The translations under genes and the position numbers were made by a program. From positions 352,001-416,000 of the forward strand of contig CAVPSB010000018.1 in NCBI GenBank assembly GCA_963708025.1: a DNA stretch of 64,000 nucleotides, written 5' to 3'. This DNA is from an uncultured Candidatus Rokubacteria bacterium. Lineage in GTDB: Bacteria > Methylomirabilota > Methylomirabilia > Rokubacteriales > DASRDR01. The stretch's first letter is position 1. The number at the start of each line of letters is the position of its first letter. Below the pieces are notes generated by a model. That model ran no database searches and was not told where the DNA came from. It saw only the letters and a list, made by a program, of their open reading frames with translations. This document shows, piece by piece, positions 1-50,499 of the stretch.

Positions 1-73
1 AGAAGCGAGCAGCGCCCAAAGGCCGAAGGCCGTCCGAAGGACGACGTGCTGCGAAGCTCATCGGCCCCGCCCG
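1..73 (+). repeat. Palindromic repeat family A, copy 1 (short variant, cut by window edge; carries unit B at 15-35)
   Basis: GAGCAGCG...CCCAAAGGCCGAAGGCCGTC...GACGACG.G.TGCGAAGCTCATCGGCCCCGCCC matches the copies at 19136-19192 and 23574-23633 (revcomp); followed by CTAG. Confidence 0.8.
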
Positions 74-137
74 CTAGATTCCTTGAGGGCCAGAAGTCGT
101 GCTGAATGAGTCAAGTTTCAGCAACACCGGCTCTCGT

Positions 138-260
138 GGCGTGGCCGAGACCCGAGCAGCCCTAGGACGCAGGGAGTCGCCGACCGGAAGCGTACCCCGG
201 GTACGCTGAGGATCGGCGACGACCGAGGACGACGGGATGCGACGGGTATCGGCCACGCCG
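138..260 (+). repeat. Palindromic repeat family A, copy 2
   Basis: Long imperfect hairpin GGCGTGGCCGA...GTCGCCGACC..GCGTAC-loop-GTACGC..GGATCGGCGAC...TCGGCCACGCC; homologous to 5147-5292, 19049-19215 and 23574-23722; abuts the stop codon (CTAG) of the radical SAM gene. Confidence 0.9.
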
Positions 261-1301
261 CTAGACTTTGACGAGCCGCCGCAGCCACCCGTACGACATC
301 ACGTGGTCGGAGAGGAACGCGCTCAGGTAGTCGGTCGGGACGCCCATCACCTGGCGCCGCCAGATCCGATCGCAGCTATAGCACGGGAGCTCCTTGGGGA
401 TGTCGCCGGTGGCCATCCGCTGGCGCAGCTCGACCAGCCGGTCGTCGTTCCAGATGGCGCGGAGGGGCTTGTCCTTGAGGTCGCCCATGCCCAGCTTGGA
501 GAAGAAGTCCTGCGGGCAGGCGGTGACGGTGCCGTCCCAGTAGATCGTCGACGAGTACCAGAGGAACGTGCACGGCGTGAACCGGCGGCCGTCGGCGAGC
601 AGGGCGTCTCGCGACAGATCCGGCATGAAGACGTCGCCCGCCCAGTTGTGCGGTGAGCGGAGAACGACCCGGTCGAGCGGGAGGCCCTTGAACTGGTCGA
701 GGAAGCCACGCCGCAGGCGCTTCAGCTCGTCGCGGTCCGGCGCCCCGATCTCCATCACCTGGAGCACGGTGTAGGGCCGCTTGGAGCGGAGCTCGCGCTT
801 GAGCTGGAGGAAGCGCTTGAGGTGGTCGAGGGCCCACTCGAATTTCGCCCCGACGCGGTTCTTCTCGTACATGTCCTTGTCGTAGCCGTCGAAGGAGCAG
901 GACATGAAGTCGAGACCGGATTCGATGAGCGCGCGGGCCTTCTTCTCGTTGAGCAGCGTGATGTTGGTGTGGATTCGGGTGTAGAGCCCTTGCGCGCGGG
1001 CGTAGGCGACCATCTCGGGGAGCTTCGGGTGCATCGTCGGCTCCCCGCGGTGGAAGAGGTTCACGTCGTAGGCGTAGTCCGCGACCTCGTCGATGATCCG
1101 CTTGAAGAGGTCGATGTCCATGAAGCCGTGGTCTTCCTTGACGATGTCCTTGTTCGGACAGTAGCCGCAGCGAAGGTTGCAGCGGCTCGTGGACTCGATC
1201 CACAGGCGCACCGGGAGCTGCGGGACCCACCTGGCTCCCGTTTTGTACGCCCAGAAGATCTTGACCAGGCGGACGAGGTGCTTGAGCTGGCGTCCGTCCA
1301 T
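261..1301 (-). CDS. Radical SAM protein with SPASM/Twitch domain
   Basis: CNLRCGYC (CX3CX2C) motif, HRGEP, C-terminal C...DGTVTACPQD...CYSC; start at ATG 1301 supported by TATAAT 7 nt upstream. Confidence 0.92.
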   Translation of the reverse strand: MDGRQLKHLVRLVKIFWAYKTGARWVPQLPVRLWIESTSRCNLRCGYCPNKDIVKEDHGFMDIDLFKRIIDEVADYAYDVNLFHRGEPTMHPKLPEMVAYARAQGLYTRIHTNITLLNEKKARALIESGLDFMSCSFDGYDKDMYEKNRVGAKFEWALDHLKRFLQLKRELRSKRPYTVLQVMEIGAPDRDELKRLRRGFLDQFKGLPLDRVVLRSPHNWAGDVFMPDLSRDALLADGRRFTPCTFLWYSSTIYWDGTVTACPQDFFSKLGMGDLKDKPLRAIWNDDRLVELRQRMATGDIPKELPCYSCDRIWRRQVMGVPTDYLSAFLSDHVMSYGWLRRLVKV

Positions 1302-1308
1302 CCCGCGC

Positions 1309-1314
1309 ATTATA
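1309..1314 (-). promoter_or_regulatory. -10 box TATAAT, probable leaderless promoter
   Basis: Perfect TATAAT on minus strand 7 nt before ATG 1301 in otherwise GC-rich DNA. Confidence 0.6.
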
Positions 1315-1319
1315 ACCGG

Positions 1320-2190: not shown

Positions 2191-2200
2191 GCCGCGACTA

Positions 2201-5131: not shown

Positions 5132-5146
5132 TGGCTAGCGGTTGAG

Positions 5147-5292
5147 GTGCCGGGCCGAGAACCGAGCAGCCCGCACAGGCCGAAGGCCGTCCAATGGACG
5201 CAGGGCGGCGCCCACCGCAGACGTACGCCCTGGTACGTCGAGGATGGGCGCCGCCCGAGGACGACGGGATGCGACGGTTATCGGCACGGCAC
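5147..5292 (+). repeat. Palindromic repeat family A, copy 3 (unit B in left arm, 5174-5194)
   Basis: Same architecture with compensatory changes; CTAGCG on both sides (5135, 5292). Confidence 0.9.
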
Positions 5293-5993: not shown

Positions 5994-5998
5994 CGCGT

Positions 5999-18075: not shown

Positions 18076-19020
18076 TTAGACCCGGGATCGCCAATCCGTC
18101 AGCACGTCGGCGAGGCTCTGCTCGAGGGGAATTTCGGGCTTCCAGCCGGTCAGGGCGCGGAGGCGACCGGCGTCCCCGAGCAACAGCGGCAGATCGATGG
18201 GTCGAACGCGCTCCGGCGCCACCCGCACCTCGATGGGACGCCCGGCCAGCGCCAGGAAGGCGTCCACCACCTCGCGGATGGCGACCGCCCGCCCGGATGC
18301 CGCGTTGTAGACCTCGCCGGGCGTGGCGTGCTCGAGGCAGAGCCAGTAGGCGCGGACCATGTCCCGCACGTCGGTGAAGTCGCGGCGGGTCGTCAAGGTT
18401 CCGACCTCGAGCACGGGGGGGGCGAGCCCCTTGTCGATCGCCGCCACCTGGCGGCCGATGTCACTGCAGACGAAGCCCGGTCCCTGCCGGGGGCCGATGT
18501 GATTGAAGGCGCGCACGATCGCGATGGGCAGCCTCTCGGCCCGGACGTAGTAGGAGGCGTAGGCCTCCTGGCAGGCTTTCGAGAGCGCGTAGGGCGATAG
18601 CGGCCTCACCGGCTGGGCCTCGGTGATCGGCTGGGCGCCCTCGGGGACGGCGCCGTACAGCTCCGCCGACGAGACGAGCAGGCAGGGGGCGGGCATCGCC
18701 CGGAGCCCCTCGAAGAGCTGAAAGGTTCCTTCCAGGTTCTGGCGGAGGACGTCGGCCCGCTGGGCCCAGGACGTTCCCACCACGCTGGCTCCGGCCAGGT
18801 GGAAGACCCGGTCGGGTCGGATCTCGGCCAGCACGGCTGCCGCCTCGCCCGGCTCGGTCAGGTCGCAGGGAATGGCTTGGACGGACGTCTGGATCGCCGC
18901 CAGGTTGGTGACCGGCGCGCCGGGGAGGGTGGTCCCCACCACCTCGGCGCCTTCGTCGAGGGCCAGCCTGGCCAGGTGACTGCCGGCGAAACCCGCGATC
19001 CCGGTAATGAACACCTTCAC
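18076..19020 (-). CDS. GDP-sugar SDR (Rmd/GDP-mannose dehydratase-like)
   Basis: ITGIAGFAGSHL, SPYALSK, RAFNHIGPRQ and RDFTDVRD motifs. Confidence 0.88.
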   Translation of the reverse strand: MKVFITGIAGFAGSHLARLALDEGAEVVGTTLPGAPVTNLAAIQTSVQAIPCDLTEPGEAAAVLAEIRPDRVFHLAGASVVGTSWAQRADVLRQNLEGTFQLFEGLRAMPAPCLLVSSAELYGAVPEGAQPITEAQPVRPLSPYALSKACQEAYASYYVRAERLPIAIVRAFNHIGPRQGPGFVCSDIGRQVAAIDKGLAPPVLEVGTLTTRRDFTDVRDMVRAYWLCLEHATPGEVYNAASGRAVAIREVVDAFLALAGRPIEVRVAPERVRPIDLPLLLGDAGRLRALTGWKPEIPLEQSLADVLTDWRSRV

Positions 19021-19048
19021 CGGAACGCTCCTTCGACTAGAGGTCTAT

Positions 19049-19215
19049 GGGCCGGGCCGAGAACCGAGCAGCCCTAGGACGCAGGGAGTCCCCGACCGCA
19101 GGCGTACTCCTAGTACGCCGAGGATCGGGGACGACCCCAAAGGCCGAAGGCCGTCCGAACGACGACGCGATGCGACGCTCATCGGCCCCGCCCGAGGACG
19201 AACGGATGCGAAGGC
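19049..19215 (+). repeat. Palindromic repeat family A, copy 4 (unit B at 19136-19156 plus a duplicated right arm)
   Basis: Homologous to copies 2, 3 and 5; abuts the CTA stop at 19216. Confidence 0.9.
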
Positions 19216-20169
19216 CTACACACGCTCACGCCAGTAGTCGAGCAGGTCCTTCATGGTCACCTCGAACGGGATCGTCGGCTGCCAGCCGGTGGCCCGCTGG
19301 AAGCGCGTGCAGTCCCCCAGCAGGACCTCGACGTCCGAGGGCCGCAGTCGGTCCGGGTCCTCGCGGACCTCGACCTGGGCGGGGGTCAGGCTCAGCAAGA
19401 TGTCGAGCACGCTCCGGACCGTGTAAGCGCGACCCGCACAGATATTGTAAACCTCGCCCGGCTCTCCGTGCTCCAGGGCCAGCCAGTAGGCGCGCACCAT
19501 GTCGCGGACGTCCGTGAAGTCCCGCGTGGCTCCCAGGTTTCCGACCCAGACCACCGGCTCCCGGCGCCCCTTCTCGATCGCCGCGATCTGGCGGGCGAAG
19601 TTCGAGGTCACGAAGACCTCGCCGCGCCGGGGACCGGTATGGTTGAACCCGCGCGTCCGCACGGCGTGCAGCCGGTGGCTCATCCAGTACTGGTAGGCCA
19701 GGTAGTCCTGCGCGACCTTCGACACGGCGTAGGGTGACAGCGGCCGGAGCGGGTTCTCCTCCCGGATCGGCACCTCGTCCTTGTGGACGAGGCCGTATTC
19801 CTCGCTGGACCCGGCGATCTGCACCCGCGTCGGGAGGCCCAGCTCGCGGATGGCCTCGAAGAGGTTGAGCTGACAGGTCAGGTTGCCGGTGATGGTCTCG
19901 CTGGGGGAGGACCAGGACGTCAGGACGTAGCTCTGCGCGGCCAGGTGGAAGATCCGATCCGGGTGGACCGCGCTCAGCATCCGGCGGACGCCGCCGGCGT
20001 CGCGGAGATCGCACTCGACGAGCCTGATCCCGTCCCGCAGGTGCTCGATGTTATCCATCCGGCTCCGCCAGCGGTGGGTGCCAACGACCTCGACGTCGCC
20101 GCGAGCCACCAGGTAGTCGGCCAGGTGGCTGCCGACGAAGCCCGTGACGCCCGTGATCAGCACTCGCAT
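19216..20169 (-). CDS. GDP-sugar SDR (Rmd/GDP-mannose dehydratase-like), paralog 2
   Basis: ITGVTGFVGSHL, HLAAQSYV, GSSEEYG, SPYAVSK and RGFNHTGPRRG motifs. Confidence 0.9.
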   Translation of the reverse strand: MRVLITGVTGFVGSHLADYLVARGDVEVVGTHRWRSRMDNIEHLRDGIRLVECDLRDAGGVRRMLSAVHPDRIFHLAAQSYVLTSWSSPSETITGNLTCQLNLFEAIRELGLPTRVQIAGSSEEYGLVHKDEVPIREENPLRPLSPYAVSKVAQDYLAYQYWMSHRLHAVRTRGFNHTGPRRGEVFVTSNFARQIAAIEKGRREPVVWVGNLGATRDFTDVRDMVRAYWLALEHGEPGEVYNICAGRAYTVRSVLDILLSLTPAQVEVREDPDRLRPSDVEVLLGDCTRFQRATGWQPTIPFEVTMKDLLDYWRERV

Positions 20170-21288: not shown

Positions 21289-23468
21289 TGCGTCGTCGCC
21301 CCGAACGCCTGGCCGAAGCCGAGCTGTCCGAGCTCTAGCAGGTTGACGGTGACGTGGAACTCGTCCTCGTTGATCCGGTCGATGAAGGCGGCGGTGATCC
21401 CCCAGCACTGCTCGCGGAAGTTCACCTCGAGCCGGTTCTCGACCACCGTCCCGCTCACGTAGTCGTAGTTGCTGGAGAACCGGACCGCCCAGCGGGGCGA
21501 GAGCCGGGCCGCCAGCTCGCCCTGGATGAACTGGAGCTCGCCCCCCACGCCGTGTCGCGTCCCGAGGGTGGCGCGGAACGCCTCCGTCACGTAGGAGGCG
21601 TCGATCGTGGCGGAGCGGACGTCCCGCTCGTACGGATCGAAGACGGCCGTCCCCCGGAACCGGAGGCCATAGACCGGCTCCAGGATCAGGTCGCCGACGA
21701 GGTCCGACAGCCGGTTGACCTTGAACGTCGTGGCGGTGCCGGGTGTGATGGGACCGGGCGGTGCCGGCAGGTTGATCCCCGAGAACGGCGACAGCAGGAA
21801 CTGATCCTCCAGGCTGTAGGTCTGGCTGAACGTGAGCCGGGCCAGCTCCCACACCCGCCCGCTGGGGAAGGCCTCGGAGGCGACGCTCCGGGCCTTGATG
21901 CGGTTGGTGAGGGAGTAGGTGAAGCTGTTCACGGGGCGAATCAGATCGATGCTGTCGTACTGCGGCAGGTCGTCCTGGTCGGTGCCGGTGCTGTAGAGGT
22001 AGCTGATCCGCGGCTCGATGGCGTGCTGGATCTTCTCGATGCCGAGGACGCCGCCCAGCTCGAACGTCCGGTAGGCGCGGGCCTCCAGGTCCACACCGGC
22101 CTCGAACAGGGAGCGGGCCGTGAACTCCTTCTCGGTGTCCTCGACCAGGAAGCCGCGGTCAACCGTGGCCCCGACCACCCGGGTGTCGTAGAGGGTCTCG
22201 CGCACGCCGATCCGGGGGGTCATCGTGAAGTATCCCCCGGGGGAGAACGGATAGGAGACGCTGGGGTGGAGGTCGAAGCGCTGGCCATTCGATCCCACGT
22301 CCCGGACGAAGTTGTTGTACGAGGTCTCCAGGTCGAACAGGATGTCGGTGCCGGCGATCCGCTGGGAGAACCCGGTCAGGCGCAGCTCGGGGAGGCGCTG
22401 CAGCTCGATCGGCTGGGTGGTGGTCAGGTCCTGATAGAAGAAGAGCCGGCCGAACAGGTTCCACTTGTCCCACCGCTGGGTCAGGGAGATGTTCGACTCG
22501 AGCCGCTGGCGACTGCGCTCGTCCAGCGTGTCGCCGAAGTCCTGGAAGAAGGTGATGTCGCTGACCCGGGCCACGTCCACCTTCAGGGTGAGCCCGGGGG
22601 TGATCAGCTCCTCGTGCCGCAGCCCGAACACTCCGCGCAGCTTGTCCTGCTCGGTGTCGTAGATCCCGAAGCCTTCCAGCTCCCCGCGGGAGGTCTCCTT
22701 CCGGATGTAGCGGTACAACGCCCCCATCGCGAGCCCGCGCTTCTCGAAGACCGTGGGGACCAGTGTGAGGTCCTGGCTGTCCGAGAGCACCAAGAAGATC
22801 GGCTGGCGATAGGTGAAGCCCTTGTCGTTGCTGGAGCCGAAGCTCGGGGTCAGGAGCCCCGACTGGCGCTCTCTCCGGAGGGTGGCGGCGAAGATCGGGA
22901 TGAACGGGATCAGCGGCACGCGGCCGACCCAGAAGGAGGCGTTGGTGCCCCAGATCCAGTCGTCGAGGTAGGCCGTGGCTTGACCCCAGCGCACGTGCCA
23001 GGCGGGCGACTCGTCCTCGCAGGTGGTGAACCAGCCCCCGGTGAGGCGGTAGGCTTTCTCGCCGAAGCGCTCCATCTTGTCGCCCCGGAAGAAGAAGTGG
23101 GGCTCGGCGGCGGCCTGCCCCTTGTACACGACTCCGGTGCCGGTGCGGAAGTTGTACTCCAGGCGCTCGCCGACGAGCCGGTCCCGGCCGTCGAAGAAGA
23201 CCACCCGCCCGACCGCCACCGCTTCCCCGGTCTCGGTGTTGACCTCGACGCGGTCGGCCTCCAGGCGCACCTCGCCCTGCTCGATCTCCACGCGGCCCTC
23301 GGCGATGAGGAGGCGCTCCCGCTCGAGGTTCTCGATGCGATCCGCGAACACCGCGACGGGCGCCTCGGGGGTGCCGAAGGTCACATCTTTGCGCTCCTGG
23401 GCCAGGACCACGGCCGGGAAGAGCGCGAGCCACGCGACGATCAGCCCGATCAGGCGCGTCCCGGGCAC
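21285..23468 (-). CDS. lptD: LPS-assembly outer-membrane protein LptD
   Basis: Signal peptide, OstA-like N-terminus, FTTC...PAW, RQSGLLTP, beta-barrel pattern, QCWG near the C-terminus. Confidence 0.88.
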   Translation of the reverse strand: MPGTRLIGLIVAWLALFPAVVLAQERKDVTFGTPEAPVAVFADRIENLERERLLIAEGRVEIEQGEVRLEADRVEVNTETGEAVAVGRVVFFDGRDRLVGERLEYNFRTGTGVVYKGQAAAEPHFFFRGDKMERFGEKAYRLTGGWFTTCEDESPAWHVRWGQATAYLDDWIWGTNASFWVGRVPLIPFIPIFAATLRRERQSGLLTPSFGSSNDKGFTYRQPIFLVLSDSQDLTLVPTVFEKRGLAMGALYRYIRKETSRGELEGFGIYDTEQDKLRGVFGLRHEELITPGLTLKVDVARVSDITFFQDFGDTLDERSRQRLESNISLTQRWDKWNLFGRLFFYQDLTTTQPIELQRLPELRLTGFSQRIAGTDILFDLETSYNNFVRDVGSNGQRFDLHPSVSYPFSPGGYFTMTPRIGVRETLYDTRVVGATVDRGFLVEDTEKEFTARSLFEAGVDLEARAYRTFELGGVLGIEKIQHAIEPRISYLYSTGTDQDDLPQYDSIDLIRPVNSFTYSLTNRIKARSVASEAFPSGRVWELARLTFSQTYSLEDQFLLSPFSGINLPAPPGPITPGTATTFKVNRLSDLVGDLILEPVYGLRFRGTAVFDPYERDVRSATIDASYVTEAFRATLGTRHGVGGELQFIQGELAARLSPRWAVRFSSNYDYVSGTVVENRLEVNFREQCWGITAAFIDRINEDEFHVTVNLLELGQLGFGQAFGATTQ

Positions 23469-23573
23469 CAACCCCCCTGAGTAGTCGTGTCGGTTCGGCA
23501 ATCGTGGAGCCGTAGCGCGCGAAGATCGCGGGCATCGTACCAGATGCCACGGCGAAGGCGCAACGCCTTGCGA

Positions 23574-23722
23574 GGGGGCGGGGCCGATGAGCTTCGCATC
23601 GCGTCGTCGTTCGGACGGCCTTCGGCCTTTGGGGTCGTCGCCGATCCTCGGCGTACTCGGAGTACGCCTGCGGTCGGCGACTCCCTGCGTCCTAGCGCTG
23701 CTCGCTCCTCGGCCCCGCCCCC
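23574..23722 (-). repeat. Palindromic repeat family A, copy 5 (opposite orientation; unit B at 23613-23633)
   Basis: Reverse complement aligns over nearly its full length with copy 4. Confidence 0.9.
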
Positions 23723-23792
23723 CCCGGGGGGAACGTGGCTCGTCGGCCATGCTGTTGGCGCTTCGAGAGCCTGCCCGCCCGCCTGGCTGGCT

Positions 23793-24842
23793 TCAGTCCG
23801 CGTCTTCGGGCTCCGGCTCCGCTTCGAATAGGTCCCCGCTGGCCGCGCTCGGGGCCTGCCGCCGCCGGCCGGATTCCATGGCGGCGGTGGCTGGGACGGT
23901 AGGGAGCGCCGGCGCATCGAGGCCGAGCAGCCGCTTGAGGTCGAGCCCGTTCCGGACGGGGTAGTCGAGGTTGTTGTTGTTGAACGTGACCGCCACCCGG
24001 CTGGCGTGGCCGCCGAAGGCGCGGACGCGCCGGGCGATCGCCTGCATCTCGTCGGGGCCGTAGAGGTAGTCGTACTTCTCGGCCACGCTGGGCTCCTTGC
24101 CGGCCAGCTGATCGAGCCAGCCCTTGACGTTCTGACCGTGGAGACGGATGACGACCCAGCCGGGGGCCGTGGCGGCGGGGATGTAGGGCTGCCAGGGCGC
24201 GTCGAGACAGACGAAGACGAGCCCGTGGTCGGCGAGGAAGCGCAGGACCTCGTCGGCGCGCTCGGGGATCCAGGAGGCGTTCCGGAACTCGACCGCCACC
24301 GTCCAGCCCGGCAGGCGGCGCGGCAAGGAGGCCAGGTACTCGAGCGCCGCGTCCCCGTAGCGGACCCAGGGGGCGAGCTGGAAGAGGACGTAGCCGAGCT
24401 TCCCGGCCGCCGCCAGCGACGCCAGGCCCGCGCGGAACAGCTCGAAGCACCGGTCGAGCGCCTCGGCCGGGAAGCGCTCGCGCTCCACCTCGCCGCGGCG
24501 CGTCAGCGGCAGGGCCTCGGGGAGCATCAGACGGAGGTCGGCCGGCAGGCTGTCGGCGCGCGGATGGTGGCCGGTCATCAGGCTGTAGGCCTTGACGTGG
24601 AAGACGAACCCGGGCGGGGTCCGCGCCACCCAGAGCTCCGAGTTCCGGGGCGAGGGCAGGGCATAGTACGTCGCGTTGACCTCGACCACGTCGAAGAAGC
24701 GCGCGTACCAGCGGAGGCGATCCTCGGCCGACATCCGGCTCCGCGGGAAGAAGCGCCCGGAGGCGATCAGCGACCGGTCGAGCCAGGAGGCGCAGCCGAT
24801 GCGATACTCGGTCGCGCCCGTGGGCGCCGGCGCGAGCACCAC
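23793..24842 (-). CDS. DUF72 (YecE-like) protein
   Basis: IGCASW, VEVNATYY, FHVKA, LFQLAP, VEFRN, RLHG and FNNN motifs; start approximate. Confidence 0.88.
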   Translation of the reverse strand: MVLAPAPTGATEYRIGCASWLDRSLIASGRFFPRSRMSAEDRLRWYARFFDVVEVNATYYALPSPRNSELWVARTPPGFVFHVKAYSLMTGHHPRADSLPADLRLMLPEALPLTRRGEVERERFPAEALDRCFELFRAGLASLAAAGKLGYVLFQLAPWVRYGDAALEYLASLPRRLPGWTVAVEFRNASWIPERADEVLRFLADHGLVFVCLDAPWQPYIPAATAPGWVVIRLHGQNVKGWLDQLAGKEPSVAEKYDYLYGPDEMQAIARRVRAFGGHASRVAVTFNNNNLDYPVRNGLDLKRLLGLDAPALPTVPATAAMESGRRRQAPSAASGDLFEAEPEPEDAD

Positions 24843-26250: not shown

Positions 26251-27101
26251 GGGATGGCGGGGTCGGCGGGCGCCTCCGCGAAGAACCCCAGCAGCCGCCG
26301 CAGCAGCTCACGCTGCTCCTTCCGCTCGATCACGAGGTCCACCATGCCGTGCTCGAGGAGGAACTCGGAGCGCTGGAACCCCTCGGGGAGCGGCTGCCGG
26401 ATCGTCTCCTGGATGACCCGGGGGCCGGCGAACCCGATCAGGGCGCGCGGCTCGGCCAGGATGATGTCCCCCAGCATCGCGAACGAGGCGGTGACCCCGC
26501 CGGTGGTCGGGTCGGTGAGCAGGGCGAAGTAGGGGACGCGCTCCTCCGCGAGCCGGCCGAGCGCCGCGCAGGTCTTGGCCATCTGCATGAGGGACAGCAC
26601 GCCCTCCTGCATGCGGGCGCCACCCGAGCAGGTGACGATCAGCAGCGGCGTCCGCTTGCGCGCGGCCAGCTCGATGGCGCGGGTGATCTTCTCGCCGACC
26701 ACCGAGGCCATGCTGCCCCCCATGAAGGCGAACTCGAAGACGCAGATCACCACCGGGTAGCCGCCGATGCGGCCGAGCCCCGAGAGGACGGCATCCTCGC
26801 TCCCGGTCTTCTCGCGGGAGGCGATCAGGCGGTCGCGATAGCGCCCACGGCTGTCCTTGAACCCGAGGGGATCGGTGGAGCGCAGCCCCGCGTCCCGCTC
26901 CTCGAAGGAGTCGGGGTCCAGGAGGAGGGCCAGGCGGTCCCGGGCGGAGAGGCGGAACGGGACGCCGCAGCGGGGGCAGGTGCGTGCGTTCTTCTCGACG
27001 TCGGGGCGGTAGACGATTTCCCGGCAGGCCTCGCACTTGATCCAGAGGCCCTGGGTGATGACGACTTTCCGGTCCTTCTTACCGCCGAACAGCCAGGCCA
27101 C
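26247..27101 (-). CDS. accD: Acetyl-CoA carboxylase carboxyltransferase beta subunit
   Basis: LWIKCEAC...CPRC zinc finger, FMGGSM, SGGARMQEG and PTTGGVTASFA motifs. Confidence 0.97.
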   Translation of the reverse strand: MAWLFGGKKDRKVVITQGLWIKCEACREIVYRPDVEKNARTCPRCGVPFRLSARDRLALLLDPDSFEERDAGLRSTDPLGFKDSRGRYRDRLIASREKTGSEDAVLSGLGRIGGYPVVICVFEFAFMGGSMASVVGEKITRAIELAARKRTPLLIVTCSGGARMQEGVLSLMQMAKTCAALGRLAEERVPYFALLTDPTTGGVTASFAMLGDIILAEPRALIGFAGPRVIQETIRQPLPEGFQRSEFLLEHGMVDLVIERKEQRELLRRLLGFFAEAPADPAIP

Positions 27102-39106: not shown

Positions 39107-39211
39107 GGTTTTCGCCGCGTCACTCAACGACCTTTGGTACCGAGGGCCGGACGTCAATGAAGATCTCGGCGACGTATCGCGGCATCCGCCCGCGCACCAG
39201 TCTCGCCGCCG

Positions 39212-39643: not shown

Positions 39644-39790
39644 GCCTCGAGATCTCGGAAGAGTTCGGATTCATCGCCGAGTTTGTTGTCCGTCAACTCG
39701 AAGAGGCGTGTAGAGGGCGGGCGGCGGCCGGTGTAGTAGCGGGACGCCACCACCCGCAGACCCTTGCGAATGAGGGCCGAGGCATGGGCA
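39640..39790 (-). pseudogene. Probable antitoxin C-terminal remnant lacking a start codon
   Basis: ASALIRKGLRVVASRYY...LGDESELFRDLEA* overlaps the PIN start; no in-frame start before the end of the tctA gene. Confidence 0.5.
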
Positions 39791-39794
39791 CCGG

Positions 39795-42838: not shown

Positions 42839-43862
42839 AGAGGATCGTCCTCAGCCGGGCGATGACCGGCGCTTCCAGGGTGAACAGCCGCTGAACGACG
42901 CGCTCGAGCTCGTCTCCCGGCACCGGCTCGATCTCGAGCTTGGCCTTCTCGGCCTCGGCGAGGAAGGCCGGGTCCCGGAGGGTGGCGGCGAACGCCTGGC
43001 GCACGAGCTGCACGCGGTCCTTCGGCGTCCCCGGCGGCAGGGTGAGCGAGCGGACGATCGCGCTGTCGGTGTGGACCGCGACCTCCAGGGTGCGGCGCGC
43101 CTCGTCGGTCTTCGCGAGGTCGATGGCGAGCGGGACGCCGGTCAGCTCGGGATGACTTTTTGGCGCGACCTGCAGCACCACCGCCACCTCGCCGGTGTCC
43201 AGCGCCTTCCGCCAGGTGGCGCGGATCGAGCCCCAGTTGAAGCACACGCCGGCCAGCTCGCCGGACTCGATGGCGAGCCGGATGTCGGCGGTGCCCTTGT
43301 AGCCGGTGACGAGCTGGATCGGCAGCCCGAGGGCGGCCTTGACCGCGCGCGTCCCGTTGTCGGGCGTGCTGGCGCCCGGCGCGACCCCGCCCATCTTGAC
43401 CGGGGTCGGCGCCGCCATCCACTTGTCCACGCTCGTGATCCCGCTGGCCTTCGCCATCGCGCACACGACGTGGTCGAAGGCGGGGGCGCCGACGAACTCG
43501 AACTTCCGGGCGTCGAACTCGATCCCCTTCTGGCCCAGGACCTGACCGAGGAACAGGCCGCCGATGAAGTGGCCGATGGTCAGCCCGTCGGGCTTCGCCA
43601 CCTTGTAGAGGTGGTTGGCCGCGATGAGGCTGCCGGCGCCCGGCATGTTCTCGACGATGACGGTGGGGGCGCCGGGGAGATGCCGGCCGAGGTGGCGGCC
43701 GAGCGTGCGCGCGAACGCGTCGAAGCCGCCGCCGGCCGAGAAGCCGACGATGATCCGGACCGTCTTGCCGCGGTAGAAGTCGTCCTGGGCGAGCGCGGCG
43801 CCCGGGGCGACGCCGAGCGTCAGGATCAGGAGCCGCAGCCATCCGAGCCCTCGTCTCCTCAT
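42831..43862 (-). CDS. TctC/Bug substrate-binding protein, paralog 2
   Basis: Signal peptide, IIVGFSAGGGFD, ENMPGAGS and KPDGLT motifs. Confidence 0.92.
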   Translation of the reverse strand: MRRRGLGWLRLLILTLGVAPGAALAQDDFYRGKTVRIIVGFSAGGGFDAFARTLGRHLGRHLPGAPTVIVENMPGAGSLIAANHLYKVAKPDGLTIGHFIGGLFLGQVLGQKGIEFDARKFEFVGAPAFDHVVCAMAKASGITSVDKWMAAPTPVKMGGVAPGASTPDNGTRAVKAALGLPIQLVTGYKGTADIRLAIESGELAGVCFNWGSIRATWRKALDTGEVAVVLQVAPKSHPELTGVPLAIDLAKTDEARRTLEVAVHTDSAIVRSLTLPPGTPKDRVQLVRQAFAATLRDPAFLAEAEKAKLEIEPVPGDELERVVQRLFTLEAPVIARLRTILYD

Positions 43863-46138
43863 CGGATCTCTCCCTTCGCGGCCTGGATCGCCCGCCACAC
43901 CCGCTCGGCCGTGAGCGGCAGGTCCGTGACCCGCACGCCCACCGCCCGGGTGACCGCGTTGGCGATGGCCGGGGCGGTGGGGAGCAGGCCGCTCTCCCCG
44001 ATGCCCTTGGCGCCATACGGCCCCGGCCCGTCGCCGTTCTCGATCAGGATGCTCCGGTACTCCGCCGGCAGGTCCCCCATGACCGGCACCCGGTAGTCGA
44101 TGAGCGAGGGGTTCAGGAGCTGGCCGTCCTCGTACACCATCTGCTCGTAGAAGGTGTGGCCGAGCCCCATCATCGCCCCCCCCTCCTCCTGGGCGTGGCA
44201 CTCGCGCGGGTTGATGGCCCGGCCGATGTCCGCCACCGAGACGTAGCGCAGCACCGTCACCACCCCCGTCGCCTCGTCCACCTCGACCTCGGCCGCCGCC
44301 ATCCCGACCTCCCAGAACGGTGCCTCGCCGCCGAGCGGCGCGTGCCCCCGCTCGCCGCGGTAGGTCCCGCGCCCGATCAGCTCGCCGCCCGGCATGCCGA
44401 AGTGTCCGGCCAGCGCCTGGGCGTACGCCAGCTCGCCGGCCGCGCCGACGATCCGCCCGTCGAGGAGCGCCAGCGCCGCCCGGTCGCTCCCGAGCTGGCG
44501 CGCGCCCAGGGCCAGGAGCTGGTCCCGCACGTCGCGGGCAGCGGCGAGGACGGCGAGGCCCATCAAGGTCGTCGAGCGGCTCGCGCTCGTCGCCTGATCG
44601 TAGGGGCTCATGCCCAGCTCCGAGGCGGCGACGCGCACCCAGCCGAGCGGGAGCGCCAGCTCCTCGGCCACGATCTGGGAGAGGACGGTGCGGCCGCCCT
44701 GGCCGCACTCCACGGTGCCGGTGAGGAGCGTCGCGCTCCCGTCGGCGTGGAGCCGCACCATCGCGCTCGACACCGAGGGGGCCAGCGGCGCCTTGATGAC
44801 GCAGGCGAGTCCCTTGCCGCGGCCGGGCGCCGGGGCGGGGTCGTGCCAGCCGACGGCGGCGGCGGCTGTACGGAGGCCTTCCGCGAAGTCGCAGTCGATC
44901 GGGAGGTCGCCCGCGATGAACGTCTCGCCGCGCCCGAGGAGGTTCCGGAGGCGCAGCTCGAGCGGGTCGAGGCCGAGCCGCTCGGCGATCACGTCCATCT
45001 GCGACTCGTAGGCCCAGGCGAGCTGGGGGACGCCGTAGCCGCGGAAGGCCACGCTGACCACCGTGTTGGTGTAGACGCCGTAGGCGGTGATGCGGACGTG
45101 GGGGATGCGGTAGGGGCCGGTCGCGGTGTAGGCCGACTTCTGCACGACGCGGGGACCGACGTCGGCGTAGGCGCCGAGCTGGTAGTGGATCTCGGCCTCG
45201 CGCGCCACCAGCCGGCCGTCGCGCCGGACGCCGGTCCGGAGCCGGTAGCGGACGGCGGCCCGCCGGACCGACTTGAACGCCTCCTCCGCGGTGAGGGCCA
45301 GCCGCACCGGCCGCTTGACGGCGGTGGCGAGGGCGATCACCAGCGGCTCGATCTTGGTGTAGGACTTGTTGCCGTAGGCGGCCCCCAGGTACGGCACGAT
45401 GATCTGGAGGCGTGCCAGCGGCAGCCCGAACATCTCCGCCAGCTCCTTCCGGACGGGGAACGGGTGCTGGGTGGAGGCCCACAGGGTGACCCCCTGGCTG
45501 TCGACGCGCGCGATCGCGCAGTGGGGCTCCAGCGAGACGTGGTGGGCCATCGGGAAGGTGTAGGTCTGCTCCACCACCAGGTCGGCCTCGGCGAAGGCCC
45601 GGTCCGGCTCCCCGCGCTCGTAGCGGTAGTGGTGGCAGACGTTGGTCCCCGCGATGGGGCGGAGGGCCCCGAGGTCCCGGAAATGCCCGGCCGGCCGGGG
45701 CCGCTCGTGGAGCAGGGGCGCGCCGGGGGCGAGTGCCTCGTCGAGGGTGGTCACGGAGGGCAGCTCCGCGTACCGGACGTCGATCAGCCCGAGCGCCGCC
45801 TCGGCGGCCGCCGCGGTGTCGGCCACGACGGCGACGACCGGCTCGCCCGCGTAGCGGATCACGCCGTCGGCCAGGAGCGGCTGGTCCTTGAACGCGGGAC
45901 CGTAGTAGAGGTCCCGGACGGGCAGGTCGGCCGCGGCCAGGACCGCGAGGACGCCGGGGGCGCGGGCCGCGCGGGTCGGGTCCACGCCGAGGAGCCGCGC
46001 GTGGGGCACGGGGCTCCGCCACAGCTTGGCGTGGACCATGCCCGGCACCGCCAGGTCGGTGATGAAGCGCGCGCGCCCGGTGGCCTTGGCCGGGGTGTCA
46101 ACGCGCGGGGCGTCGGTGCCGACGGTCCCGAGGCTCAC
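43859..46138 (-). CDS. Xanthine dehydrogenase family molybdopterin-binding large subunit
   Basis: RSPVPHA, STQHPF, AFRGYG, ECGQG, ASRST and GAKGIGE motifs. Confidence 0.93.
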   Translation of the reverse strand: MSLGTVGTDAPRVDTPAKATGRARFITDLAVPGMVHAKLWRSPVPHARLLGVDPTRAARAPGVLAVLAAADLPVRDLYYGPAFKDQPLLADGVIRYAGEPVVAVVADTAAAAEAALGLIDVRYAELPSVTTLDEALAPGAPLLHERPRPAGHFRDLGALRPIAGTNVCHHYRYERGEPDRAFAEADLVVEQTYTFPMAHHVSLEPHCAIARVDSQGVTLWASTQHPFPVRKELAEMFGLPLARLQIIVPYLGAAYGNKSYTKIEPLVIALATAVKRPVRLALTAEEAFKSVRRAAVRYRLRTGVRRDGRLVAREAEIHYQLGAYADVGPRVVQKSAYTATGPYRIPHVRITAYGVYTNTVVSVAFRGYGVPQLAWAYESQMDVIAERLGLDPLELRLRNLLGRGETFIAGDLPIDCDFAEGLRTAAAAVGWHDPAPAPGRGKGLACVIKAPLAPSVSSAMVRLHADGSATLLTGTVECGQGGRTVLSQIVAEELALPLGWVRVAASELGMSPYDQATSASRSTTLMGLAVLAAARDVRDQLLALGARQLGSDRAALALLDGRIVGAAGELAYAQALAGHFGMPGGELIGRGTYRGERGHAPLGGEAPFWEVGMAAAEVEVDEATGVVTVLRYVSVADIGRAINPRECHAQEEGGAMMGLGHTFYEQMVYEDGQLLNPSLIDYRVPVMGDLPAEYRSILIENGDGPGPYGAKGIGESGLLPTAPAIANAVTRAVGVRVTDLPLTAERVWRAIQAAKGEIR

Positions 46139-48528
46139 GGCGGCGGCGCTCCTCGGCGTGCTTCCCGCAGGGCGCGCCAGACCCGCTCCGGTGTCATCGG
46201 CAGCTCAGTGAGGCGCACGCCCGTCGCGTGGGCGATCGCGTTGCCGATGGCGGGCGCGACGCAGAAGGTCCCGCTCTCCCCGACGCCCTTGGCGCCGAAG
46301 GGGCCGGGCCCGTCGGCGTTCTCGACCAGGATCGTCTCGAAGGCGTCCGGCAGGTCGGCGAAGGTCGGGAGCCGGTAGTCGATCAGGCCGGGGTTCAGGA
46401 GCTGGCCCTGCTCGCCGGCGCGCGCCTCGAAGAGGGCGGGGCCGAGCCCCATGATCGCCGCGCCCTCGTCCTGGGCCGCGCACTCGCGGGGGTTGATGGC
46501 CTGCCCCACGTCGGCCGCCGACACGTAGCGGCGGACCCGGACCGTCCCGGTCTCCGGATCGACCTCGACCTCCGCGGCGCCCATGCCGGTCTCCCAGAAG
46601 GCGGTGGCGCCGCCCAGGCTCCCCGACCACCGGGTCGGCACGAACGACCCGACCCCGGTCACCTCGCCGCCGACCAGGCCGAAGTGGCCGCGGATCACCT
46701 CGGCCACCGTGAGCGCGCCGACCCGGCCCTCGCGAAGGTCGAGGCCAGCGGGGTCCGTCCCGAGCAGCCCGGCCGCCAGCCCCAGGAGCTGCCCGCGCGC
46801 GTCGCGGGCGGCGGCCTGGACGGCCAGCCCCATCAGGGTCGTCGAGCGGCTCGCGCTCGTGCCGTGGTCGAACGGCGTGAGGGAGGTGTCGGGGGCCCCG
46901 ACGACGACGGCCTCGAACGGGACGCCGAGCGTCTCGGCGGCGATCTGGGCCAGCGCGGTCCGCGCCCCCTGGCCCACCTCCACGGTCCCGGCCAGGAGGC
47001 TCACGCTGCCGTCGGCGTGGACGCGGACGATGGCGGTCGAGACCGTGTGCGTCCCGCCGCCGTCCTTCATCGCGCACGCCAGCCCCCGGCCGCGCCCGGG
47101 GGCGCCTGTCGCGCCCCGGTCGAGCGCGCGCGCCACCGCCAGGAGGCCCTCGGCCATGTCGCCGTCCATCGGGGTGTCGCCGGCCACGTACTCCTCGCCG
47201 CGCTCGAGGAGGTTCCGGAGGCGCAGCTCGAGCGGATCGAGGCCGAGCCGCTCGGCGATCGCGTCCATCTGCGACTCCGAGGCCCAGGTCACCTGGGGGA
47301 CGCCGTACCCGCGGTAGGCGCCGGCCGGCACGTTGTTGGTGTAGACGCATCGGGCGCCGATGCGGAGCCCGGGGATGCGGTACGGCCCGAGGGCGCGGGA
47401 GCCGGCCTTGGTGGCCACGCGGGGCCCGATGTCCGCGTAGGCGCCGGTGTCGAGGACGACGTCGGACTCGCGCCCGAGGAGCGTCCCGTCCCGCCGGACG
47501 GCGGTCCGGAGCCGCACCGTCACCGCGTGGCGGCTGATCGTCCGGGCGCTCTCCTCCAGGGAGAGCGCGAGCCGCACGGGCCGCTGGACGCGCGCGGCGA
47601 GCGCGGCGGCGAGCGGCTCGATCTTGGTGTAGCACTTCCCTCCGAAGGCGCCGCCGATCAGCGGGACCACCACCTGGACGTGAGAGAGCGGCAGCCCGAA
47701 GACCTCCGCCAGCTCCTTCCGGACCGGGAACGGGTGCTGGGTCCCAGCCCAGACCGTGACGCCGTCCGCGTCCACCCGCGCGAGGGCGCAGTGGGGCTCG
47801 AGGGCGTGGTGCGACAGCGCCGGGTAGCGGTAGACGTCCTCCACGACGAGGTCGGCCTCGGCGAACGCCCGCACCAGGTCGCCGCGCTCGTACTGGTAGT
47901 ACTGGCAGACGTTGGTGCCGGGGACGGGCCGGAGCCCGGACAGGTCGCGGAAGTGGCCGGCGCGGTCCAGCGTGGGATGGATCAGCGGGGCGTCCGCCGC
48001 CAGCGCCGCCTCCGCGGTCGTCGCGGCCGGCAGCTCCCGGTACCGGACGTCGAGCACCCCCAGCGCGGCCGCGGCGCGGGCCTCCGTCTCGGCGACGACG
48101 GCGACCACCGGCTCGCCGGCGTAGCGGATCACCTCGTGGGCGAGGATCGGCTGGTCCTTGAAGGCGGGCCCGTAGTGAAGGCGCGTCACGGGCAGGTCGG
48201 CCGCCGTGCAGACGGCTACCACGCCGGGCATCGCGGCCGCGCGGGCGGCGTCGACGCCGAGGAGCCGGGCGTGCGGCACGGGGCTCCGCCAGAGGCGGGC
48301 GTGGACCATCCCGGGCAGCGCGAGGTCGGTGACGTAGCGGGCGGCGCCCGTCACCTTGTCGCCGGCGTCGAGCCGGGGGACCGAGCGCCCGACGATCGAG
48401 ACCCCCCCGACTCTTCGACGGCCTTCGGCCTTTGGCGGCCCCTCCCCACCGGTCGACGGCCTCCGGCCTTTGGCCGGGGGGAGGGGCGGCGTGCTTGCCG
48501 CCGACTGACGGCCAGGCGATAGCGTCAC
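46135..48528 (-). CDS. Xanthine dehydrogenase family molybdopterin-binding large subunit, paralog 2 (repeat-derived N-terminus)
   Basis: KVTGAARY, GGAFGGK, AYRGYG, EVGQG and GAKGVGE motifs. Confidence 0.93.
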   Translation of the reverse strand: MTLSPGRQSAASTPPLPPAKGRRPSTGGEGPPKAEGRRRVGGVSIVGRSVPRLDAGDKVTGAARYVTDLALPGMVHARLWRSPVPHARLLGVDAARAAAMPGVVAVCTAADLPVTRLHYGPAFKDQPILAHEVIRYAGEPVVAVVAETEARAAAALGVLDVRYRELPAATTAEAALAADAPLIHPTLDRAGHFRDLSGLRPVPGTNVCQYYQYERGDLVRAFAEADLVVEDVYRYPALSHHALEPHCALARVDADGVTVWAGTQHPFPVRKELAEVFGLPLSHVQVVVPLIGGAFGGKCYTKIEPLAAALAARVQRPVRLALSLEESARTISRHAVTVRLRTAVRRDGTLLGRESDVVLDTGAYADIGPRVATKAGSRALGPYRIPGLRIGARCVYTNNVPAGAYRGYGVPQVTWASESQMDAIAERLGLDPLELRLRNLLERGEEYVAGDTPMDGDMAEGLLAVARALDRGATGAPGRGRGLACAMKDGGGTHTVSTAIVRVHADGSVSLLAGTVEVGQGARTALAQIAAETLGVPFEAVVVGAPDTSLTPFDHGTSASRSTTLMGLAVQAAARDARGQLLGLAAGLLGTDPAGLDLREGRVGALTVAEVIRGHFGLVGGEVTGVGSFVPTRWSGSLGGATAFWETGMGAAEVEVDPETGTVRVRRYVSAADVGQAINPRECAAQDEGAAIMGLGPALFEARAGEQGQLLNPGLIDYRLPTFADLPDAFETILVENADGPGPFGAKGVGESGTFCVAPAIGNAIAHATGVRLTELPMTPERVWRALREARRGAPPP
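48400..48490 (-). repeat. Repeat family C (CCCCTCCCC...GGGGAGGGG hairpin with two B units)
   Basis: Colinear with 49933-50017; B units at 48417-48435 and 48455-48473. Confidence 0.85.
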
Positions 48529-48534
48529 TTGCGT

Positions 48535-49032
48535 TCAGCCGCCATCGCCTGTCCCCGCGCCGGGTGCCAGGCGCCGGGAGGCGGCCAGGATCGCGTCCAG
48601 GATGCGCTGGTAGCCGGTGCACCGGCAGATGTTGCCGCGCATGTAGTGCTTGACCTCGGCCGGGGTCGGCGCCGGGATCTCGCCGAGCAGGGCGACGGTG
48701 GCCATGATCATGCCCGGCGTGCAGAAGCCGCACTGGAGCGCGCCGTGCTCGACGAACGCCTCCTGGATGGGGTGGAGCTCCTCGCCGCGGGCCAGGCCCT
48801 CGACGGTGCGGACGTGCTTCCCCCGCGCCTCGAAGGCCAGGGTCGTGCAGGCGCTCACCGGCTGATCGTCGAGGAGCACGGTGCAGGCGCCGCAGACCTG
48901 GACGTCGCACGACTTCTTCACACCCAGGAGTCCGAGGCGATCGCGGAGACACTCGATCAGCGTCTCCCAGGCCGGCACGGTCAGCTCGTGCCGCTCCCCG
49001 TTGACCGTCACCGTCATCGCCACCTCTCTCAT
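48535..49032 (-). CDS. (2Fe-2S)-binding small subunit (CoxS-like)
   Basis: [18 protein letters not shown] and GNICRCTGY motifs. Confidence 0.95.
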
Positions 49033-49910
49033 CGGGACTCTTCGCGGACGCCGAGCCCGGCCAGGGCCTGGTGGAACGCGCGCGCCAGGAGGACGCCGAC
49101 CAGGTGCGCCTTGTACTCCGCCGAGCCGTGGAGGTCGGTGACGGCGTCGGCCGCGCGACCGGCGACCCGGCCCGCCTCGGCGAGGGCCGCCCGGCTCTCG
49201 CCGAGGGCCTTGCCCTCGAGGAGCGCCTCGGCCTCGCGCATCCGGCGCGGCACCGGACCGACGCAGCCCACCGCGATCCGGACGCCGGCGACGCGCCCGT
49301 CGTCGACCGTCACGGCGACCGCGACCCCGACCGAGGGCCGCTCGAGGATGCCGAGCTTGAGGTAGGCGGCGGCCGACCGCGGCGGGGGCGGCGGCACCAC
49401 GACCTCGGTCAGGATCTCGTCACCCTCCAGGCAGGTCTCGAAGGGGCCGACGAAGAGGGCTTCCAGCGGGATCGTCCGCTCGCCGCCGGCCCGCTCGATG
49501 CGCGCCGTCGCGTCGAAGACCTCCAGCAGGGTCCCGGGGTCCGCGTGCGGCTCGGCGAAGCAGAGGTTGCCGGCCAGCGTCCCCATGGTGCGCACCCGGA
49601 CGTTGGCCACGTCCCCTTCCATCCGGGCGAGGGCCGGGAAGTGCTCGCGCACGATCGGGTCCCGCTCGATGGCGCGATGGGTGGTGGCGCCGCCGATCCG
49701 GAGGCTGCCGTCGGGGCCGAGGCGAAGGCCGGCCAGGCCGGCGATGGTCTTCACGTTGACGAGGTAGTCGTAGTGAGCCAGCCCTTCCTTCATCACCAGG
49801 AGCAGCTCGGTGCCCCCCGCGTAGAGCCGGGCGGCGTCGCCGTGCCGCGCCAGCAGCTCCGAGGCCTCGGCCACCGAGGCCGGCTCGACCAGATCGAACG
49901 GTCTCAGCAT
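49029..49910 (-). CDS. FAD-binding medium subunit (CoxM-like)
   Basis: AGGTELL, LRIGGATT and TLAGNLCFAEPHAD motifs. Confidence 0.93.
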   Translation of the reverse strand: MLRPFDLVEPASVAEASELLARHGDAARLYAGGTELLLVMKEGLAHYDYLVNVKTIAGLAGLRLGPDGSLRIGGATTHRAIERDPIVREHFPALARMEGDVANVRVRTMGTLAGNLCFAEPHADPGTLLEVFDATARIERAGGERTIPLEALFVGPFETCLEGDEILTEVVVPPPPPRSAAAYLKLGILERPSVGVAVAVTVDDGRVAGVRIAVGCVGPVPRRMREAEALLEGKALGESRAALAEAGRVAGRAADAVTDLHGSAEYKAHLVGVLLARAFHQALAGLGVREESR

Positions 49911-49929
49911 GTTGTTCGGGACCTCCCGC

Positions 49930-50499
49930 CTACCCGATCCTTCGACGGCCTTCGGCCTCTGGCCCCCCTCCCCCGACCGTTGGACGGCCTTCGGCCTGTG
50001 GCGGGGGGGAGGGGGGTGCCGGAGAGACCGATTCCTTTACGGGCTGTCTGTCCTGGCCTTCGAGCTGCGACCGCATCGCCGCTGCGAAGCGGTCCACGAT
50101 CTCCGCCCCCTTGCGCACGATGACGCTATGCCCGAGCGTCCCCAGCTTTCCCAGCACGGCGATCTCGGCGGCCAGTCGCAGCACGGTCCCGCCCTCGGCG
50201 GCGTCGAGCGATACGTCGAGGTCGACCTTGACGATGCCGTCGACGCTGGCGTCGCGGCCGCCGGCCCGCGCGCGCAGGCGCTCCGGCGGCTGGACGTCCA
50301 GGACCTCGATCTCCAGCGGGAACTGGACCTTGAACGGCCCCACCCGCTCGGCGACGACGGCGGCGTAGCGCTTCCCGTCCTCGAGGACGCGCACCTCCCG
50401 CGCCCCCGGGAGGCACGCCGCCAGCCGCGGCACGTCCCAGAGAAACGCCCAGACCGCCTCCCGCGGCGCTCCGATCCGGATCTCGCGCTCGACCTTCAC
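49930..50499 (-). CDS. CoxG/SRPBCC protein (in frame with upstream EutA-like ORF; repeat-derived C-terminus)
   Basis: APREAVWAFLWD...CLPG, VGPFK and GKLGTLG motifs. Confidence 0.85.
   Translation of the reverse strand: MKVEREIRIGAPREAVWAFLWDVPRLAACLPGAREVRVLEDGKRYAAVVAERVGPFKVQFPLEIEVLDVQPPERLRARAGGRDASVDGIVKVDLDVSLDAAEGGTVLRLAAEIAVLGKLGTLGHSVIVRKGAEIVDRFAAAMRSQLEGQDRQPVKESVSPAPPSPPPQAEGRPTVGGGGPEAEGRRRIG
49933..50017 (-). repeat. Repeat family C, copy 2
   Basis: B units at 49944-49962 and 49980-50000; the latter is identical (21/21) to revcomp of 5174-5194. Confidence 0.85.

Follow-up and report, generated by a model that had tools for sequence, protein, structure and literature searches.

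The window analysed here is a 64,000-nt stretch of DNA from an uncultured Rokubacteria bacterium (G000:C18:352001-416000). Its source assembly, G000, is a metagenome-assembled genome (MAG) of 8.17 Mb in 49 contigs with 71% G+C, 99.67% complete by markers and with an estimated contamination of 8.18%. Here we describe a unit of 21 nt, called B, that lies inside larger hairpin repeats and has the consensus CC-A-[A/C]-A-GGCC-GAA-GGCC-GTC-[C/G]-[A/G]; its core consists of a 4-bp GGCC stem and a GAA triloop. A first-pass annotation of the window had listed nine copies of B and placed each of them within another repeat. We recovered all nine, with every core inside the corresponding interval, and all nine could be assigned to a larger repeat, which belongs to family A, belongs to family C or is an insert in the gene folC. 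The following matches to the core were found in the window by pattern matching.

20-34, 5177-5191, 19141-19155 and 25483-25497, + strand: exact B core AGGCCGNAGGCCGTC
23614-23628, 48417-48431, 49944-49958 and 49983-49997, - strand: exact B core AGGCCGNAGGCCGTC
48455-48469, - strand: B core with a GGA loop
2438-2452, - strand: B core with one mismatch, within coding sequence

These ten matches (nine exact and one with one mismatch) compare with 0.17 expected, and the maximum in 100 shuffles was three. The match at 2438-2452 is probably due to chance. The larger repeats that hold the other nine, together with one copy that lacks B, are listed below.

15-37, + strand: B copy 1, in a 71-nt derivative of family A whose centre consists entirely of B (left terminus, B, right terminus)
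138-260, + strand: empty family-A palindrome without B; the left site reads TA, the right site CGAG
5147-5292, + strand: family A with B in the left arm (core 5177-5191, class A-left)
19049-19192, + strand: family A with B in the right arm (core 19141-19155, class A-right)
23575-23721, - strand: family A with B in the right arm (core 23614-23628, class A-right)
25456-25530, + strand: folC insert bearing B (core 25483-25497)
48405-48492, - strand: family C, a C-rich/G-rich hairpin, with B in the loop (GGA, 48455-48469) and a second B (48417-48431)
49930-50016, - strand: family-C hairpin with B in the loop (49983-49997) and a second B (49944-49958), followed by a GGATCGGGT.GGCGGGAGGT module

The empty family-A copy at 138-260 folds into one long hairpin (-47.9 kcal/mol, z -7.4). 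The 71-nt derivative with B copy 1 begins 5 nt ahead of the window and ends near 66-72. In both family-C elements, the second B core (48417 and 49944) stands just after the hairpin and not in its loop. The element at 48405-48492 is sense-oriented and separates genes of an operon for molybdopterin dehydrogenase, and the GGATCGGGT.GGCGGGAGGT module of the element at 49930-50016 is found about 11 nt ahead of the ATG of the gene for the FAD-binding subunit. Two adjacent paralogous genes for the large subunit of molybdopterin dehydrogenase occupy 43859-48534 on the - strand; they are about 75-79% identical over 2.3 kb, and a family-C repeat stands ahead of the upstream one.

Abundance and genomic setting of unit B

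The source genome contains 544 exact copies of B, which are divided between the strands (274 and 270) and spread over all large contigs in fixed contexts. Their triloop is GAA in 501 cases, GGA in 30, GCA in 11 and GTA in two. The 19-mer CCAMAGGCCGAAGGCCGTC occurs 390 times, its reversed control not once. Aligned as a profile, 543 copies extend the unit to SS-CC-A-[A/C]-A-GGCC-G-A-A-GGCC-GTC-[C/G]-[A/G]-A-N, where the fourth base 3' of GTC is almost random. The GGCC stem was set by the search pattern and is almost invariant in unselected copies too; since the stem hardly varies, no covariation can be counted for the hairpin. By standard DNA parameters the isolated hairpin is weak (-3.4 kcal/mol, z -1.26). 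Excerpts of two articles report C-GNA-G loops to be unusually stable as DNA (PMC13037366, PMC3201870).

According to the crude GC3 test that we used for all coding and noncoding calls, just 3 of the 543 copies fall within coding sequence. The genes around B are co-directional in 440 of the 543 cases, convergent in 62 and divergent in 23. Pairs of B less than 130 nt apart have the same orientation in 187 cases, a divergent one in a single case and a convergent one in none. Units of B are thus direct repeats, unlike the doublets of repetitive extragenic palindromic (REP) sequences known as REPINs. The 19-mer had no match in viral contigs. A search of the window against Rfam yielded no family at the gathering score; below this threshold, Guanidine-II matched within one family-A element with 19.3 bits compared to the 32 bits needed.

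Host repeats, occupancy sites and the 21-nt difference

B was found at three sites in repeat family A, two in family C and one in family D, in addition to a module that we call the folC/E type. To classify the copies, we used motifs with one mismatch allowed, which gave 659 copies in the following classes; all nine window copies fall into these genome-wide classes.

Family-C hairpin loop: 165 of 659
Just after the family-C hairpin: 112
Family-A left arm: 91
Family-A right arm: 67
Loop of the E module: 53
Other left-terminus contexts: 54
71-nt derivative of family A: 8
Tandem partners: 34
Family D: 5 (the regular expression was too strict, and clustering of the flanks gave about 27)
Other: 70

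Only 11 of the 543 profile copies have both flanks unclustered, and by eye these still lie between short complementary arms. Relative to transcription, B is mainly antisense in families A, D and E and sense in family C. Within at least four host families, B occupies six fixed sites for which lengths could be measured, with one orientation per site.

A-left site: empty 2 nt, filled 23 nt (23 nt in place of TA)
A-right site: empty 4 nt, filled 25 nt (25 nt in place of CGAG)
E loop: empty 6 nt, filled 27 nt (by eye)
C loop: empty 10 nt (292 matches, both strands), filled 31 nt (86)
After the C hairpin: empty 7 nt (144), filled 28 nt (45), or 49 nt with two units (5)
D loop: empty 6 nt (76), filled 27 nt (54), from a noisy regular expression with a background of 8-36 per length, so that only the peaks at 6 and 27 nt were used

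The difference between filled and empty forms is 21 nt at all six sites. The first-pass annotation had derived this net gain for the two family-A arms by comparison with the empty copy at 138-260, and had placed B at different positions of unrelated hairpin repeats. Both observations hold across the genome, with filled and empty forms present at each site.

One site provides an insertion without any other change. The C loop in its empty form, CCCC-SGG-TGGGTG-GGGRAGGGG, occurs in 143 copies, and seven copies have CCAMAGGCCGAAGGCCGTCMA between CGG and TGGGTG; both reversed controls gave 0 copies. The case of CGG^TGGGTG is a seamless insertion of 21 nt without target duplication.

Family A is a long imperfect palindrome of about 170-210 copies in G000. 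The central stem has compensatory variants, and outside the left terminus there is a 'head' that is conserved but not palindromic (..ATGGCAGATGAGTCA.GTTCTCG..). On the right, the element frequently borders directly on CTA, the neighbouring gene's stop codon. Among 369 terminus-to-terminus spans, some of them false, we observed peaks at 112 (46 spans), 133 (21), 154 (22), 166 (13), 187 (15), 208 (11) and 229 nt (4). The length of a family-A element can therefore be written as 112 nt plus an optional E module of 54 nt plus zero to three units of 21 nt. B-left, B-right, E and B-in-E could be combined in 12 ways, and 11 of these were seen among 167 aligned elements. Several of our comparisons of junctions were made by eye on consensus sequences; among these, the A-left site revealed no microhomology for a 21-nt deletion. 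The E module also stands alone as a hairpin with B in its loop, for instance in the spacer of a ribosomal-protein operon between an rpmJ-like and an rpsM-like frame (G000:C32:~84100-84260). As A contains E and E contains B, the nesting is hierarchical.

Family A also has two shortened forms. The 71-nt form (8 copies) matches the 154-nt form from which the 83 nt that separate the two B units have been taken out, and the 97-nt form has the left B joined to the B of the E module. Their simplest origin would be recombination between direct B units. Tandem pairs or triplets of 21 nt occur 12 times in G000. Furthermore, a tandem array of 16 units of the 21-nt variant GCCAGAGGCCGAAGGCCGGAT is located at the right-arm site of one family-A element (G000:C15:~314266-314667).

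A further module of family-C repeats is GGATCGGGTGGGCGGGAGGT (window 49905-49945, - strand), which has 266 matches in G000 at up to four mismatches and ends in the Shine-Dalgarno-like motif GGGAGG. A plausible start of an open reading frame (ORF) follows within 40 nt downstream in 119 of the 266, mostly at 6-12 nt. The module looks like a portable ribosome-binding site borne by family-C repeats.

The insert in folC

The B copy at 25483 lies inside folC, whose product has Mur ligase domains and which is encoded on the - strand in a stop-to-stop frame at 24856-26307. Compared to its relatives, folC of G000 has 75 additional nt, i.e. 25 in-frame codons, at about 25456-25530; the insert is missing in all 12 relatives aligned. 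One related copy of it occurs elsewhere in G000. By eye, it resembles a diverged hairpin module of the E type together with B (54+21 = 75). The insert is a composite that has been kept in frame and not B alone. The first-pass annotation had called B frame-preserving; as a selected property this is not supported, given this composite and the very few copies in coding sequence. In one of the 12 relatives, G012 (L076, G012:C15), folC has no insert and reads through only with a shift by one base beside the site of the G000 insert; either the assembly is in error here or the frameshift is genuine.

Distribution, stacks and an orthologous junction in relatives

In the sister genus g5, CCAMAGGCCGAAGGCCGTC is present with 6-62 copies in 12 of 13 genomes, and all 17 genomes searched in other genera lacked it; no reversed control gave a match. 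The genus of G000 and g5 share one and the same 19-nt core, with flanking genes that are about 74% identical. Among species-representative genomes, at least 64 loci matched; in the matches listed, 43 were titled Rokubacteria, Methylomirabilota or Rokuibacteriota, three 'uncultured bacterium', and 18 were single matches in unrelated taxa.

The host of B differs in g5. There, B is part of an intercistronic element, [A/G]TGAGC - CCACAGGCCGAAGGCCGTCCGATCAACTC.CGCGGAGCCAGGGTAGCCCA - GTGAGC, located after a stop codon and itself terminating in a start codon. Where this element is found at a GTGA stop/start overlap (L092-L095), GTGAC precedes it and GTGAGC follows it, and stop and start both survive. 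These flanks represent either a target duplication of 4-5 nt or a start codon supplied by the element.

Within the g5 element, B is often nested in itself. Several CCACAGGCCG left halves come first and as many AAGGCCGTCCGATC-like right halves come after them, (CCACAGGCCG)n...(AAGGCCGTCCGATC)n, and one such layer measures 24 nt compared to the 21-nt unit of G000. We counted 86 cases of two adjacent left halves in 10 of 13 g5 genomes and none in the controls, in G000 or in other genera. Across 92 units or arrays, in a sample biased to arrays by the 20 stack loci that were chosen for stacked left halves, the numbers of left and right units are correlated (r 0.72), with equality in 51 cases and a difference of at most one in 87. 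For the 33 arrays with at least two left halves, the respective numbers are 17 and 29. This pattern of the form a^n b^n is the one expected of repeated insertion into the innermost loop, G^AA. Independent slippage on the two sides would not keep the left and right numbers equal; selection for the hairpin might.

We compared one orthologous gene pair with a GTGA stop/start overlap across 12 genomes. Its junction is found in four states.

Bare: G013, G009, G011 and G004
Intercistronic element with stacked B: G016, G018, G015, G012 and G010
Tandem 21-nt units: G008 (four units, in frame with the downstream reading frame) and G017 (five units)
Family-C hairpin with empty loop, one B and the Shine-Dalgarno-like module: G000

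G010 has one 24-nt layer more than G016 and G018, with spacers of 113 vs 89 and 88 nt. As far as the compared sequences tell, this one junction shows gain, loss and remodelling of B across species.

Occurrence in public sequencing runs

Public DNA runs from soil, wetland and sediment contain up to 0.43 of the sampled words of the window. RNA runs that contain window words were not found among the public runs listed. In four public DNA runs, no contig spans a B or a host repeat; their short contigs break at 19051, at about 23633-23672 and at 25455/25456, that is, at the repeats. The summed contig depth of four soil metagenome runs at 18674-19340 and 23343-24009 is 10-50x that of neighbouring bins. 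This high depth over the two family-A elements indicates that repeats like family A are abundant in those soil communities; it says nothing on copies per cell.

Discussion

On balance, we consider it moderately likely that B is a non-autonomous micro-element, similar to REPs or small dispersed repeats (SDRs), that enters hairpin loops and is then carried along with its hosts. Our observations concern the anatomy of the repeats, from which we infer an activity that acts in trans. Such an activity would recognise the B hairpin, probably as single-stranded DNA, and would place copies of it in exposed loops. Further spread in G000 would then be passive, as the host repeats of families A and C are copied, and tandem arrays would grow through slippage. 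Recombination of B with B within one host would remove the intervening DNA and so yield the 71- and 97-nt forms. A more specific proposal, which we put forward only tentatively and with considerable doubt, is that the putative activity moves a hairpin of 21-24 nt into exposed hairpin loops, including its own G^AA, without target duplication, and that it is none of the Y1 HUH transposases (including the REP-associated tyrosine transposases, RAYTs), reverse transcriptases, TnpB or IS110 as far as these were searched. If true, this would be transposition or templated insertion of DNA much smaller than any element whose mechanism is known.

Several observations weigh against a mobile B. No copy in G000 is located in plainly unique, non-hairpin sequence, and stacked B was found 0 times in this genome. 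At five of the six sites, 2-7 flanking nt also change, so that these are replacements and not plain insertions. In the stacks of g5, the mean number of mismatches going outward on the left is 0.06, 0.82, 0.70, 1.67 and 1.5, where the first value is imposed by the search and the gradient is partly imposed by the search for arrays; the right-hand layers have no age gradient (1.28, 1.08, 1.33, 1.4, 1.5). In the alignment of 167 family-A elements, columns of B are conserved at 0.93-0.95 and columns of the host at 0.92-0.93. B is thus no better conserved than its host, which gives no sign of recent independent activity. Subtypes of B are specific to sites, with CCAC in 52 of 91 A-left copies, CCAA in 49 of 67 A-right copies and CCCC in 25 of 53 E-site copies. 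Next, we mapped B onto a host tree, inferred with FastTree from the 112 shared columns of the family-A alignment; as this tree is short and poorly resolved, the minimum numbers of changes are inflated by error. The minimum for B-left is 25 changes (54 on average after shuffling), for B-right 13 (45) and for B-in-E 13 of 58 (15). The E module, which is regarded by nobody as mobile, needs 12 changes (shuffled 48), similar to the 13 of B-right. The few changes, and their similarity to those of the E module, suggest that B status is largely inherited with the host copy. We conclude that the G000 copies are probably mostly passengers of host-repeat amplification and not recent independent insertions. 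The interpretation of the first-pass annotation is supported in part, by the seamless insertion, the self-nesting and the junction states of relatives; the independent mobility that it ascribed to B is weakened in G000 by the divergence, the subtypes and the clustering on the host tree.

The search for a mobilising enzyme also speaks against mobility, as Y1_Tnp (PF01797), RVT_1, the TnpB zinc ribbon and DUF559 each gave 0 matches in G000. IS110 has seven matches there, and B lies within about 1.5 kb at none of the six loci that were fetched. An enzyme gene flanked by B units, as envisaged by the first-pass annotation, was thus not encountered among these families in G000. Its statement that the window itself encodes no mobilising enzyme agrees with our searches, which found no transposase family among the 31 ORFs of the window; matches were to housekeeping families only, with two ORFs lacking a match. 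Among relatives, Y1_Tnp is present in 7 of 13 g5 genomes and in none of five genomes of the family's other genera; outside the family, 4 of 12 genomes have it. B-like sequence was found within about 1.5 kb at none of the four Y1_Tnp loci of g5 that were examined. The g5 protein (e.g. L083, G010:C8) is single-copy and IS200-like, with 313 aa and a long C-terminal extension, and is of a common type. We also considered adenine variation as in diversity-generating retroelements. This idea was dropped as no reverse transcriptase was found and the variable positions are the unpaired ones.

Could the same anatomy arise if B never moves by itself? B might be a shared module of mosaic intergenic repeats that resemble bacterial interspersed mosaic elements (BIMEs), possibly recognised by a host or transposition factor. 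Occupancy would then result from recombination, gene conversion and deletion, and stacks from paired slippage that preserves the hairpin. We regard this as unlikely, albeit as an explanation to be taken seriously. It fits with the location of almost all B copies within a repeat family, with a divergence equal to that of the hosts, with site-specific subtypes and with the clustering of B status, and likewise of the E module, on the host tree. The replacements at five of six sites and the 71- and 97-nt forms, where B-by-B recombination has reshaped the hosts, point in the same direction. However, an immobile module does not readily account for the recurrence of one 21-nt unit in four or more families whose flanks are unrelated and in another host in the sister genus, or for the seamless 21-nt insertion at the C loop. 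Furthermore, independent two-sided slippage does not predict equal numbers of left and right halves in the stacks, and recombination at varied points leaves the constant gain of 21 nt at six sites unexplained.

It is quite improbable, in our view, that B is primarily a selected functional motif, such as the site of a nucleoid or regulatory protein or an RNA hairpin for transcript stability or processing, whose spread is a by-product. The identity of the core in two genera would agree with such a role, as would the location almost wholly in transcribed intergenic spacers, where divergent promoter regions are avoided (23/543), and the sense orientation of family C and of the g5 element, which end in a Shine-Dalgarno-like motif ahead of start codons. 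Yet the orientation to transcription varies between families (A, D and E vs C), which argues against one role at the RNA level. Function also leaves the stacks, the tandem arrays and the 21-nt quantum unexplained, the isolated hairpin is weak, and Rfam has no match. As the genome has 71% G+C and includes tandem arrays, we lastly considered chance, low-complexity G+C-rich sequence or slippage of local repeats. This explanation is refuted by the excess of matches in the window over expectation (10 vs 0.17) and by the 390 occurrences of the 19-mer against 0 for the reversed control; the copies on all large contigs in fixed contexts also speak against it.

B can be compared to several known systems. 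SDR1-8 of Nostoc punctiforme and relatives, which Elhai and colleagues are said to have described in 2008, reportedly measure 21-27 nt and form a small hairpin. They reportedly lie inside other repeats or minitransposons and within each other, with no associated gene, and their mobility is said to have been deduced from comparisons of loci. B would share with them, going by these reports, the unit size, the hairpin, the embedding, the self-nesting and the lack of an associated gene, as well as presence and absence between related genomes at one locus (one junction, 12 genomes). In contrast to the SDRs, B has an unrelated sequence and occurs in another phylum at 71% G+C; it self-nests only in g5, whereas in G000 it is limited to few fixed sites of few families.

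Other short repeats resemble B in some respects. BIMEs of E. coli, BOX elements of pneumococcus and enterobacterial repetitive intergenic consensus (ERIC) sequences with inserts are composites whose modules are optional, so that one size class differs from the next by complete modules. The hosts of B have similar mosaic patterns and module-sized length classes, but B is common to several unrelated families, forms stacks and tandem arrays of its own and, unlike BIME units, does not alternate in orientation. Mycobacterial interspersed repetitive units (MIRUs) are similar to the g5 element, which is found at stop/start overlaps of operons and restores the start codon, and to the tandem 21-nt arrays that are in frame; B is far smaller, and its mode in G000 is that of single units inside hairpin repeats. 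In contrast to miniature inverted-repeat transposable elements (MITEs), the insert at CGG^TGGGTG caused no duplication, and B lacks terminal inverted repeats apart from those of its stem.

REP and REPIN elements, which are associated with RAYT transposases in the excerpted text of Bertels and Rainey (2011, PMC3116915), are likewise short, extragenic and palindromic, with hundreds of copies between co-directional and convergent genes. They differ from B, whose pairs are direct and not inverted (187 vs 1) and whose stem has 4 bp; moreover, G000 has no RAYT (Y1_Tnp) gene, and the Y1_Tnp genes of g5 have no B nearby at the four loci. The sections available of Di Nocera et al. (2013, PMC3733652) describe CGTC REPs without a known transposase, and in T. 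roseum the repeat GTAG-23 inside the palindrome CCGSSCC(n3,4)GGSSCGG, with hundreds of empty targets. The CGTC families, in the same sections (PMC3733652), have stems of 8-9 bp that start with A-T pairs, loops of 4-5 nt and mostly head-to-head dimers. B likewise has CGTC and CCA at its two ends. It differs, however, by its 4-bp G+C stem, its 3-nt loop and its direct arrangement, and the order of CCA and CGTC along the strand is, by the wording of those sections, opposite in B. By analogy, the closest match to B among these systems appears to be the SDR kind, which would then be present in another phylum.

To our knowledge, the question of how repeats of some 20 nt can spread while lacking their own gene has stayed open since the cyanobacterial SDRs. 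Our search of the literature found no case of such small repeats outside cyanobacteria, and nothing relevant on repeats of Rokubacteria. B would be a separate instance from a distant phylum rich in G+C, and its traces are unusually readable in the 21-nt quantum, the seamless insertion, the stacks and the four-state junction. With these traces, and with related genera without B among those searched, the mechanism becomes approachable by comparative genomics; B-rich, B-poor and B-free genera side by side would let phylogenetic profiling find the responsible gene. Since the repeats reshape operon spacers and have added 25 codons to folC, they also matter for annotation and for the reading of intergenic regions in these soil genomes.

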